Positions 11,357 to 47,590 of a DNA stretch of 64,000 bases are shown piece after piece. The stretch is from Candidatus Woesearchaeota archaeon (lineage in GTDB: Archaea > Nanobdellota > Nanobdellia > Woesearchaeales > JAZDKJ01): positions 288,001 to 352,000 of the forward strand of contig JAZDKJ010000006.1 of the NCBI GenBank assembly GCA_043803105.1, read 5' to 3'. Position numbers and translations under genes: made by a program. The notes beneath the pieces are model-generated. The model was not told the DNA's origin, did no database searches, and saw nothing but the letters and a program-made list of their open reading frames with translations. Numbering within the stretch: position 1 is the first letter of the stretch; the number at the start of each line of letters is the position of its first letter.

Positions 11357-11510
11357 GCCGGGTTGCAGGAACATGGTTAACTGACTCTGCTGAAAACAGA
11401 GAGACTTGACCAAGTCTTCAGGTGTCAGAGACAAAGTCTCTGAGCATGCTCAGAAATTCAATGAATTTCTGACAGTTCAAAACTTAACAGGGAGAATCCC
11501 TGGCCCGGCG
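11357..11510 (+). tRNA. Atypical tRNA(GAA) with long variable arm and G73; 52-bp palindromic insertion in T-stem and 15-nt T-loop intron
   Basis: GCCGGGT/GCCCGGC acceptor; CTCTG-CTGAAAA-CAGAG; AGACTT-GACC-AAGTCT variable arm; CAGG(G)TTCAAA..TCCCTG. Confidence 0.75.
11423..11474. repeat. 52-bp compound palindrome (MITE/REP-like) inside the tRNA T-stem
   Basis: TGTCAGA...TCTGACA termini, central CTGAGCATGCTCAG, internal hairpins. Confidence 0.7.
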
Positions 11511-15769: not shown

Positions 15770-15841
15770 GGGCACGTAGCTCAGTAGCAGAGCGTTCCCC
15801 TCGCACGGGAAAGGCCGCGAGTGCGACTCTCGCCGTGTCCA
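15770..15841 (+). tRNA. tRNA-Ala(CGC)
   Basis: GGGCACG/CGTGTCC with G3:U70; TTCCC-CTCGCAC-GGGAA; T-loop TGCGACT. Confidence 0.88.
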
Positions 15842-15953
15842 GTCACTTTGAATCGGTTGGACGAGTTCGTTTTCCCAGGTTCGCCCGAGCTTAAGCGAGC
15901 GGCGTGCCAGAAAACTGATGGTTTTCTGAGCATTTGCATATTGCAAAAAGCTG

Positions 15954-16056
15954 CGCGAGTGCGACTCTCGCCGTGTCCAGTTCTGCTAAAAGCGTGGTCG
16001 TTTTTCCCAGGTTTTTGCGTATCGCAAAAAGCTGTTCCGGCTCTCGCCGTGTCCAC
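15954..16056 (+). repeat. Two extra copies of the tRNA-Ala(CGC) 3' end (att-like scars)
   Basis: CGCGAGTGCGACTCTCGCCGTGTCCAGT at 15954; CTCTCGCCGTGTCCA at ~16042; spacers share TTTTCCCAGGTT and GCAAAAAGCTG. Confidence 0.85.
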
Positions 16057-16068
16057 TCTTTGACAATT

Positions 16069-16112
16069 AAAAAAAAAGAAAAAGCTCGCACAATCAGGCT
16101 GGGTTCGCGTCC
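16069..16112 (-). ncRNA. Putative small antisense RNA 2, complementary to D-arm and variable arm of the tRNA(GAA) at 16225
   Basis: GCTCGCACAATCAGG vs GCTCGCATAATCAGG; TGGGTTCGCGTCC vs TGGATTCGCGTCC; TATA at 16135-43; same U-tract as RNA 1. Confidence 0.75.
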
Positions 16113-16224
16113 GGTTGTATTGAAAATATTCAAATATATAAAACTTGCCTCGGATTTTCCGGAAAATCAGCTATATTTTGTCAGTCAACAATAAGAACCA
16201 AGTGATACCGAATATAGACGCGAA

Positions 16225-16323
16225 GCCGGGCTCGCATAATCAGGTATTGCGTCTGCCTGAAGAGCAGATGGATTCGCGTCCATCAGGGTTCAAATTCTCA
16301 TCATGAGAATCCCTGGCCCGGCG
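16225..16323 (+). tRNA. Atypical tRNA(GAA) with Ser-like long variable arm, G73 and 15-nt BHB intron at 59/60 (16295-16309)
   Basis: GCCGGGC/GCCCGGC; TCTGC-CTGAAGA-GCAGA; TGGA-TTCGCG-TCCA; A15:U48; CAGGG/CCCTG; BHB TTCA/TGAG with AAT bulges; 84-nt mature. Confidence 0.85.
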
Positions 16324-16739: not shown

Positions 16740-19163
<2,424 letters not shown>

Positions 19164-20259: not shown

Positions 20260-21525
20260 TTAGGCCTTTATTGCCTTGACACAATCGTCTATTCCAAGAA
20301 GTTTTTCTTCTCCGCTCTGCATGTTCTTTAGCTTTACCTTTTTCTCCCTTAGCTCTTCCTCTCCGATTATTGCAACAAAAGGAATTCCTAGCGAGTTTGC
20401 ATACTGAAGGTTCTTGCTCGGTCCTCTGCCTGAAAGGTCTACATCTGTCCTTATGCCATTTGCACGCAACTGTTCAGCTATCTTCAGGCTTTGTGCAAAA
20501 GTCTTTATCGGGATTACATAGACCTGTGCTACTGTTTTTGCCCCTGCCTTATTCATCTCTGTATAAGCATCATGTATCCTGTCGAGTCCAAAGGAGATGC
20601 CCACTGCAGGATAGTCTCCCTTGCCAAGGAATTCCCCTATCATCTTGTCATATCTTCCGCCTGCGCAGACTGAGCTTTCTATCTTGGATTTTTTCATGAA
20701 TATCTCGATTACTGTTCCTGTGTAATATGATAGTCCTCTGGCAAGTGCTGCCTCAAACTCTGCCTCAACCCCAATTATCTTTAGATAATTCAGTAGGTCT
20801 TCTAACTCCTTTATTCCGTCTGATTGCACTATCCCCTTGAAGTAGGCTATTTTCTCTTCATTTGTGCCCTTGTAGCTCACAGAGTATAGAAGCTCGTCTA
20901 TCTGATCTTCACTTACCCCTTTGTCTTCCAGCTCTTTCTTGACCCCTGCTACTCCGATTTTTGCCAGTTTGTCAACGCTAAGTATCACTTCCTCATGCTT
21001 TTTGATCTTGAATTTGGTCAGTATGTCGTTGAGTAGCTTCCTGTTGTTTATCTTTATCTTAATCTCAAGCCCCAGAGCATCAAACACTTTTTCTGCAAGC
21101 GATAATAGTTCAGCCTCTGCAGTCACTTCCTTGCATCCTGCGATATCCACGTCGCATTGCGTGAATTGCCTGTATCTGCCAAGCCCCATTGGACCGTCCC
21201 TGAACACCTCTCCCACATGGTATCTCTTGAAAGGCATTTTCAGTTGAGGGTTCATTCCGATGATTCTTGCGAAAGGAACAGTGAGGTCATACCTTAATGC
21301 CAGCTCTCTTCCTCCCTGGTCAGCCAATTTGAAAGTCTCTTTTAGTATCTCTGCCCCTCCAGCATATTTCGACGCCATTACATCAAACCTTTCGAGTACA
21401 GGGGTCTCCAGCGGTGGATAGCCATACAGTTCAAACACTGCCTTTAGTCTGCCCACTATCTCTTGCCTTACAATCTGCTCTTCAGGCAGAAAGTCCCTTG
21501 TTCCCTTTGATCTCTCGAGCTGCAT
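20260..21525 (-). CDS. hisS: Histidyl-tRNA synthetase
   Basis: KGTRDF, LRYDLTVP, RYRQFTQ, RGLSYYTG, GGRYD. Confidence 0.97.
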   Translation of the reverse strand: MQLERSKGTRDFLPEEQIVRQEIVGRLKAVFELYGYPPLETPVLERFDVMASKYAGGAEILKETFKLADQGGRELALRYDLTVPFARIIGMNPQLKMPFKRYHVGEVFRDGPMGLGRYRQFTQCDVDIAGCKEVTAEAELLSLAEKVFDALGLEIKIKINNRKLLNDILTKFKIKKHEEVILSVDKLAKIGVAGVKKELEDKGVSEDQIDELLYSVSYKGTNEEKIAYFKGIVQSDGIKELEDLLNYLKIIGVEAEFEAALARGLSYYTGTVIEIFMKKSKIESSVCAGGRYDKMIGEFLGKGDYPAVGISFGLDRIHDAYTEMNKAGAKTVAQVYVIPIKTFAQSLKIAEQLRANGIRTDVDLSGRGPSKNLQYANSLGIPFVAIIGEEELREKKVKLKNMQSGEEKLLGIDDCVKAIKA

Positions 21526-47474: not shown

Positions 47475-47590
47475 GGGCCCATAGCTTAGCAGGTAGAGCA
47501 TCCGGCTCTTAAGATTCAAAGCAACCGGAAGGTCGGGAGTTCAAAAGGCTCTTAGCGCATGTTAAGGCATTGAAAGCCTCCCTGGGCTCA
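47475..47590 (+). tRNA. tRNA-Lys(CTT) with 12-nt canonical intron (47512-47523) and 31-nt T-loop intron (47546-47576)
   Basis: GGGCCCA/TGGGCTC; TCCGG-CTCTTAA-CCGGA; BHB TTCA/TGAA. Confidence 0.92.

Follow-up and report, generated by a model that had tools for sequence, protein, structure and literature searches.

A serine-type tRNA gene with a phenylalanine anticodon belongs to an intron-bearing family conserved across the archaeal order Woesearchaeales

Introduction

The locus analyzed here raised a simple question: what is a tRNA gene that combines the body of a serine tRNA with the anticodon of a phenylalanine tRNA, and what might such a gene do in an archaeal cell? tRNAs in which body and anticodon disagree are raw material for genetic-code change and deliberate mistranslation. 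To our knowledge, the known natural families of this kind are bacterial (the allo-tRNAs) or eukaryotic (the nev-tRNAs and the tRNA-Ser of CTG-clade yeasts).

The gene lies in a 64,000-nucleotide stretch of DNA, which we refer to as the window. The genome that contains the window (G000) is a Woesearchaeota-type DPANN MAG of 1.56 Mb in 13 contigs that is 96% complete. The best relatives of the HisRS encoded in the window, which were at most 61% identical, were found in Candidatus Woesearchaeota or Nanoarchaeota MAGs. A preliminary description of the locus had proposed that the gene is an apparently intact, chimeric tRNA with anticodon GAA on a serine-type scaffold. Here, we examine the structure of the gene, its place among the tRNA genes of its genome and its order, and the ways in which its product might be charged and used.

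Results

Structure of the tRNA gene. The gene, referred to as copy A, and the partial tRNA copy that precedes it consisted of the following features (window coordinates).

16225-16323, plus strand: copy A, a 99-nt, intron-bearing class II tRNA gene with discriminator G73 and anticodon GAA
about 16225-16294, plus strand: exon 1 of copy A
16259-16261, plus strand: anticodon GAA
about 16295-16309, plus strand: 15-nt T-loop intron at 59/60, which matches the intron of tRNA-Val(CAC)
about 16310-16323, plus strand: exon 2 of copy A
16084-16118, plus strand: partial copy of a tRNA 5' part (a D-arm-like segment joined to a variable-arm-like segment), about 140 nt upstream of copy A

The acceptor stem (GCCGGGC/GCCCGGC) contained seven Watson-Crick pairs, including G1:C72, C2:G71, and C3:G70, and the discriminator at window position 16323 was G73. 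The D arm had a 3-bp stem (GCA/UGC) and an 11-nt loop, with U8, A14, A15, and G18G19 present, and the anticodon stem (UCUGC/GCAGA) closed the loop CUGAAGA. The acceptor pairs, discriminator, and anticodon loop of the preliminary description were therefore read directly from the gene. The 15-nt variable region formed a stem of 4 to 5 bp with a 4-nt loop and left a single unpaired U before the T stem (CAGGG/CCCUG). The T stem enclosed 22 nt, which corresponded to a 7-nt T loop and 15 extra nucleotides.

Unspliced copy A was not called by ARAGORN, which reported a false "tmRNA" instead, and scored only 19.2 bits with Rfam. When the 15 extra nucleotides were removed in silico, ARAGORN drew a complete 84-nt class II cloverleaf, tRNA(gaa), that had the long arm and a 7/5 fold (7 bp in the acceptor stem and 5 bp in the T stem). 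The fold of the pre-tRNA had a z score of -4.4, and none of 200 shuffled sequences was as stable; together with the covariation in the family described below, this z score indicated that the structure did not arise by chance. The G73 discriminator, the long arm, and the full cloverleaf that appeared after in silico splicing confirmed that copy A is a real, apparently intact tRNA gene with a class II, serine-type scaffold and anticodon GAA.

The T-loop intron. The splice point of the copy A intron could slide between 57/58 and 60/61 with no change in the product because A/U was repeated at the junction. In a strict bulge-helix-bulge motif, the exon-intron junctions lie in two bulges of 3 nt each, with a helix of 4 bp between them. 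An intron of equal length and position, with the same attainable helix-bulge geometry, was present in the tRNA-Val(CAC) gene at C6:83839-83926. In the minimum-energy fold of that intron, T-loop bases 54-57 paired with the 3' part of the intron in a 4-bp helix in addition to the T stem, and 3 nt were bulged out ahead of the 3' exon. In copy A, a fold with the T stem, a 4-bp helix (UUCA/UGAG, with one G.U pair), and a 3-nt 3' bulge (AAU) had an energy of -5.9 kcal/mol, and the 5' cut in this fold was located in an 11-nt loop (the relaxed form). The minimum-energy fold of copy A was instead a competing 7-bp hairpin (-11.4 kcal/mol). Thus, the clean bulge-helix-bulge motif at 59/60 that had been proposed was attainable as a relaxed, local-type motif, but it was not the most stable fold.

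Other copies in the genome. Four additional members of the same kind were found in this genome.

window 11357-11510, plus strand: copy E, a diverged paralogue with G73, loop CUGAAAA (anticodon GAA), and a compensated D stem (CAG/CUG)
C6:403310-403463, minus strand: copy B, anticodon GAA, with two acceptor-stem mismatches
C6:263594-263761, minus strand: copy C, intact, loop CUGAUGC, anticodon GAU
C8:41345-41442: copy D, truncated

Copy E had a 17-nt variable region and two introns, one of 52 nt inside the T stem and one of 15 nt in the T loop. The spliced form was called by ARAGORN as an 87-nt tRNA(gaa) and scored 60.2 bits with the covariance model R1 described below. The diverged second GAA copy reported in the preliminary description was thus real, and its presence made a sequencing error in the copy A anticodon unlikely. 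The copies shared the tRNA and a repeat, with no further flanking homology. Copies E, B, and C were all interrupted in the T stem, at 52/53, by an intron of about 52 nt with a conserved palindromic core, which was also present in truncated copy D; in copy E, it spanned window positions 11419-11472. This intron may be mobile or inherited, and it may be specific to these tRNAs in this genome.

These copies bear on whether copy A is a decaying, inactive duplicate in a family that is nonetheless real. The damage to copies B and D would fit such decay, as would the hairpin that competes with the splicing fold and the TATA-like element of copy A, which was weak and located at about -36, whereas those of most relatives were strong. 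On the other hand, copy A was the most regular of the copies in the genome: its four stems and variable-arm stem were fully paired with one G.U pair, the tertiary-pair positions were kept, and the T loop was canonical once spliced. We consider decay of copy A quite unlikely.

Downstream of copy A, there was an intein-bearing GyrB gene, an RNase H-like gene, and the HisRS gene. The intein (Pfam Intein_splicing, residues 435-591) split the GyrB gene (window 16740-19124, minus strand). The 17-nt anticodon arm of copy A recurred exactly in the HisRS reading frame near its start (window 21474-21490, minus strand), where it encoded LPEEQ. An antisense or mimic link to HisRS was rejected: the match was in the same sense, LPEEQ is a common peptide, and similar matches were found in unrelated proteins of relatives. 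The recurrence was probably a coincidence.

Serine-type body. Copy A was compared with four tRNA-Ser and four tRNA-Phe sequences in a reference-only alignment of the 5' 64 nt from which the anticodon columns were dropped. The identity of copy A to the four tRNA-Ser sequences was 61-69%, versus 31-39% to the four tRNA-Phe sequences of relatives. In the D-arm region (columns 8-28), copy A shared 15-20 of 21 positions with tRNA-Ser, versus 10-11 of 21 with tRNA-Phe. The match was closest to a tRNA-Ser(CGA) of a relative, with which copy A was identical at positions 8-27 and shared 20 of 21 positions over columns 8-28. In addition, the 15-nt variable region had the same length as those of the tRNA-Ser genes of this genome with anticodons GGA, UGA, CGA, and GCU.

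PMC9976931 describes the archaeal tRNA-Ser identity set as the long variable arm, G73, and a weaker contribution from G30:C40. All three were present in copy A, although only half of the 10 aligned family members had G30:C40. None of the serine anticodons (GGA, UGA, CGA, or GCU) was present; with GAA in their place, copy A was no ordinary serine isoacceptor, even though the anticodon is not read by SerRS. For tRNA-Phe, PMC9976931 lists A73 as one of four strictly conserved determinants and the anticodon as strict, with G20 used in A. pernix. Of these determinants, copy A had only the anticodon (G34, A35, and A36), with G73 in place of A73 and U20 in place of G20. The long arm also set copy A apart from the class I body of tRNA-Phe, which has a 5-nt variable loop. 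A tRNA-Leu assignment failed as well, since tRNA-Leu requires A73 and a Leu-type D arm, and the tRNA-Leu of this genome had A73 and a D arm that differed from that of copy A.

An uninterrupted class I tRNA-Phe was found in 13 of 40 relatives, and all 13 had A73. The serine-over-phenylalanine assignment of the preliminary description was therefore supported by the alignment, and relatives did not use the copy A form as their ordinary tRNA-Phe.

Canonical tRNAs and the meaning of UUY codons. ARAGORN called 9 tRNA genes in the genome, and Rfam yielded 17 matches, 6 of which were above the family cut-off. A hand-built scan recovered about 37 tRNA genes from this genome, in which the tRNA genes were crowded with noncanonical introns. 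The canonical genes most relevant to copy A were the following.

C12:about 181423-181670: class I tRNA-Phe(GAA) with A73 and three introns, from the hand-built scan
C7:30536: tRNA-Ser(GGA) with introns, from the hand-built scan
C8:105988: tRNA-Ser(UGA)
C8:113874: tRNA-Ser(CGA)
C10:28584: tRNA-Ser(GCU)

The idea that canonical tRNAs are missing was ruled out, since tRNA-Phe and tRNA-Ser(GGA) were both recovered, albeit only by the hand-built scan. The search for a canonical tRNA-Phe elsewhere in the genome, which the preliminary description had called for, thus succeeded. The genome also encoded one PheRS alpha/beta pair and one SerRS with an N-terminal arm domain (PF02403), and a search of the genome for a dedicated extra synthetase found no further class II synthetase core.

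The tRNA genes of G000 contained up to three introns each. A palindromic repeat element was located within the T-loop introns of many of these genes (Phe, Pro, Gln, Glu, and Ser), as in C12:181423-181670, C7:13023-13290, and C6:187242-187379. Two intron-bearing genes in the window were missed by ARAGORN and the Rfam cut-off: a tRNA-Leu(CAG) with D-loop and variable-region introns (2381-2521) and a tRNA-Lys(CUU) with anticodon-loop and T-loop introns (47475-47590).

The preliminary description had also raised recoding as an alternative. The code itself might have changed, so that UUY codons now mean Ser and no longer Phe, or copy A might be the sole tRNA for UUY codons. The anticodon itself was the one point in favor of this alternative. 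The meaning of the codons was assessed in two genes, HisRS and TctA, each aligned with 28 relatives. Phe was the most common residue at 12 of the 17 positions at which HisRS of this genome had a UUY codon, and Ser was the most common at none of the 17. In TctA, all eight UUY codons in conserved columns corresponded to Phe, and 11 of 14 AUY codons corresponded to Ile. The Phe columns in these two genes, which were never Ser columns at UUY codons, and the canonical class I tRNA-Phe with A73 ruled out a reassignment, and we regard this alternative as extremely improbable. With a full set of canonical tRNAs and a standard code, copy A was supernumerary.

A family conserved across Woesearchaeales. 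A pattern scan for a serine-type D-arm end followed by a GAA loop was applied to 400 other genomes of the order. Matches were found in 12 genomes, versus 7 control matches, and inspection identified 5 genuine class II tRNAs with G73 and anticodon GAA. The intron-free 5' parts of 10 members were then aligned. In the D and anticodon stems, 80 of 80 cells were paired, all 8 pairs had changed on both sides, and none of 500 shuffles was as good. U33, G34, and A35 were invariant in the ten aligned members.

Covariance model R1 was built from this 10-member alignment of GAA and GAU genes. Four copies in G000 scored 60-69 bits with R1 (62.8 bits for copy A, which was a training member), versus 19-32 bits for the true tRNA-Ser genes of this genome. 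R1 matched 66 of 150 genomes of the order, and 65 matches outside the training set were inspected. Ordinary tRNA-Ser genes accounted for 36 of these matches, and the remaining 29 had odd anticodons (11 GAA, 12 GAU, 2 CAA, and 1 each of UAG, GAG, CAG, and UAA), a tally that is biased toward GAA and GAU because R1 was trained on members with these anticodons. All 25 odd matches with a readable 3' end had G73. In addition, all 25 odd matches with a measurable length were at least 98 nt long, a length that indicated the presence of an intron; among 35 ordinary tRNA-Ser genes, only 6 exceeded 86 nt.

In total, we identified 42 genes of this mismatched serine-type family in 24 genomes from 21 GTDB families of one order, a count that leaves out 28 weaker R1 matches (42.3 bits or less) and a match in genome G112. 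The anticodons of the 42 genes were all N-A-N: 22 were GAA, 14 were GAU, and 6 were Leu types (CAA, UAA, UAG, CAG, or GAG). G73 was present wherever the 3' end was readable, and an intron was present wherever the full length was readable; this universality speaks for a single old origin of the family. Most members were preceded by TATA-like boxes, and some genomes carried sets of anticodons, such as GAA, GAU, and GAG in G053 and GAU, GAA, and UAA in G079. One of the GAA members in this total came from a phylum-level sample. Among the few genomes sampled from other orders of the class, there were only two matches, and both were ordinary tRNA-Ser(GGA). Copy A therefore belongs to a conserved, order-wide family with Phe, Ile, and Leu anticodons.

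Genomic context and a possible role outside translation. In four genomes (G000, in which the member is copy C, and G021, G003, and G009), a family member preceded the gene of a TctA-family transporter, with 6-11 nt separating it from the start codon. Among the TctA loci of 28 relatives, 3 had a further family member directly upstream of TctA, beyond those from the pattern scan, and G046 provided a fourth case. This arrangement would be consistent with a nontranslational role, such as an RNase P/Z processing signal for the downstream mRNA, an integration landing site, or a nonribosomal serine donor or regulator. The partial tRNA copies just upstream of many members point in the same direction. 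Nevertheless, most members were away from TctA, and no ORF started directly downstream of copy A. The 10 ORFs around copies E and A included no integrase or other mobile-element family, so that an integrated element between these copies was rejected. Moreover, a processing signal would need neither a 7-nt loop with invariant U33, G34, and A35 nor a perfectly covarying anticodon stem. In our judgment, a nontranslational role is unlikely.

A fragment like the partial copy upstream of copy A also preceded copy B and the genes of several relatives. Such short duplicates of the tRNA 5' half or anticodon arm were located 40-150 nt upstream of family members in many genomes (L098, L101, L108, L122, and L132) and of copies A and B, and they are possible scars of recombination or integration.

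Discussion

Charging and decoding. The conservation of the family in at least 21 GTDB families, with its own intron, sets of genes per genome, and anticodons for hydrophobic amino acids, speaks for a function that is tied to the anticodon. One way to account for this is that PheRS (or IleRS for the GAU members) charges these tRNAs via G34-A35-A36 despite G73 and the long arm, in which case the family would consist of correctly decoding backup isoacceptors. A different body might, for example, escape a nuclease or other factor that targets the normal tRNAs. A variant of this proposal is dual Ser/Phe charging, as in the tRNA-Ser(CAG) of CTG-clade yeasts. That 42 of 42 odd anticodons were N-A-N points to selection on the anticodon, and the sets of anticodons in G053 and G079 fit the proposal, as does G37 of copy A, which is also found in canonical tRNA-Phe genes. 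According to PMC9976931, PheRS strictly requires the anticodon, but A73 and, in A. pernix, G20 are also determinants, and copy A has G73 and U20. G73 was also found in all members with a readable 3' end. Furthermore, the members with Leu anticodons are left unexplained, since G73 is described there as an antideterminant for archaeal LeuRS. Overall, charging by anticodon-reading synthetases seems rather unlikely to us.

In the reading that we prefer, to which we give an even chance, copy A is genuine and probably functions as part of the conserved Woesearchaeales family, whose members share an intron and a serine-type body, and its product is serylated and reads UUY codons. The precursor would be transcribed, the splicing endonuclease would remove the T-loop intron, and CCA would be added. 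The single SerRS, with its N-terminal arm that binds the long variable arm, would then serylate the product; serylation is predicted because the long arm and G73 determine serine identity irrespective of the anticodon (PMC9976931). The resulting Ser-tRNA(GAA) would read UUC and UUU, so that serine would replace some phenylalanine, either at a low rate or only under certain conditions, and the sister tRNAs would act likewise at Ile and Leu codons. There is a precedent in PMC12993449, where Phe codons are translated as Ser by a human tRNA-Ser with the G35A change.

Several points argue against this reading: the weak TATA-like element of copy A, the hairpin fold of the intron, and the presence of G30:C40 in only half of the aligned members. 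In addition, Ser in place of Phe, Ile, or Leu would be expected to do harm by damaging hydrophobic cores, so plain mistranslation hardly explains why several genes are retained per genome. The restriction of the anticodons to those with A35 suggests that something other than SerRS reads the anticodon, and it leaves room for the anticodon-reading synthetases and nonribosomal roles considered above. Editing of A35 to inosine, which would create a serine anticodon, was rejected because the GAU and Leu-type members would not become Ser-reading and because tRNA-Ser(GGA) is already present.

A more speculative and, in our view, doubtful extension of the serylation reading is that Woesearchaeales keep a "shadow set" of Ser-charged tRNAs for codons with U at the second position, which would be released by splicing or promoter control to replace hydrophobic residues with Ser conditionally. 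If so, the set might keep ribosomes moving when these host-dependent cells are short of Phe, Ile, or Leu, or it might poison translation during virus attack. Either use would make the set an archaeal case of regulated deviation from the genetic code.

Relation to known mismatched tRNAs. The nearest counterparts of the family are the bacterial allo-tRNAs, the nematode nev-tRNAs, and a human tRNA-Ser G35A variant. The preliminary description had called copy A reminiscent of the allo-tRNAs (Mukai et al., PMC5389517; reviewed in PMC7609411) but with a 7/5 fold. This comparison was accurate. In these sources, allo-tRNAs have serine identity elements (the long arm, with tRNAs that are SerRS substrates) and nonserine anticodons, are supernumerary, and have no known natural role, and some allo-tRNA pseudogenes are tied to mobile elements. 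They also mistranslate in E. coli. As described there, allo-tRNAs occur in Clostridia, Proteobacteria, and Acidobacteria, have an 8/4 or 9/3 geometry and no introns, and carry anticodons that cover 35 codons. In contrast, the Woesearchaeales family is archaeal, has a 7/5 geometry, carries an intron in all readable members, and has only N-A-N anticodons. Copy A therefore shares the mismatch between body and anticodon with allo-tRNAs, but its 7-bp acceptor and 5-bp T stems differ from the 8/4 or 9/3 arrangement of their 12-bp acceptor/T branch.

The nematode nev-tRNAs (Hamashima et al., PMC3333845) are also class II, 7/5 tRNAs that are conserved in a lineage and have anticodons (Gly and Ile) that disagree with the body. 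They are charged according to the body, are weakly expressed, and decode in vitro. They differ from the Woesearchaeales family in that they are eukaryotic, derived from tRNA-Leu, and leucylated, whereas the Woesearchaeales members are archaeal and serine-type (G73), with anticodons for Phe, Ile, and Leu codons. The human tRNA-Ser-AGA-2-3 G35A variant (PMC12993449) is likewise a serine tRNA with A as the middle anticodon base that inserts Ser at Phe codons. This variant, with anticodon AAA, is a polymorphism that arose recently in a single gene and not a conserved family with an intron and paralogues.

No archaeal tRNA with a body/anticodon mismatch was found in the literature searched, although the supplementary lists of Mukai et al. 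might include some. The family described here is set apart from allo-tRNAs by its geometry and from the Leu-type nev-tRNAs by its serine-type body, and the kind of mismatch is itself known. In CTG-clade yeasts, a hydrophobic (Leu) codon is read by a tRNA with a serine-type body, tRNA-Ser(CAG), and that codon is reassigned or ambiguous genome-wide. The yeast tRNA thus differs from the Woesearchaeales case, in which the code is standard and in which the family members could place serine at hydrophobic codons.

Annotation is affected by these findings because ARAGORN and Rfam miss these genes, and naming based on the anticodon would make them tRNA-Phe, tRNA-Ile, or tRNA-Leu.

Two minor observations concern other tRNA genes of this genome. 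Archaea normally read AUA with a modified CAU anticodon. A class I tRNA gene with introns at C6:245346-245467 had a loop that was read as anticodon UAU (Ile), which is thus unusual. In the window (15770-16060), the 3' end of a tRNA-Ala(CGC) gene (15770-15841) recurred twice after the gene as direct repeats (about 15953-15981 and 16042-16057). These repeats were interleaved with the same palindromic repeat that was found within the T-loop introns of other tRNA genes, which had T or A runs around a short core and ended in a CCUGGGAAAA-like sequence. The repeats of the tRNA-Ala 3' end look like scars of repeated integration or repeat insertion.
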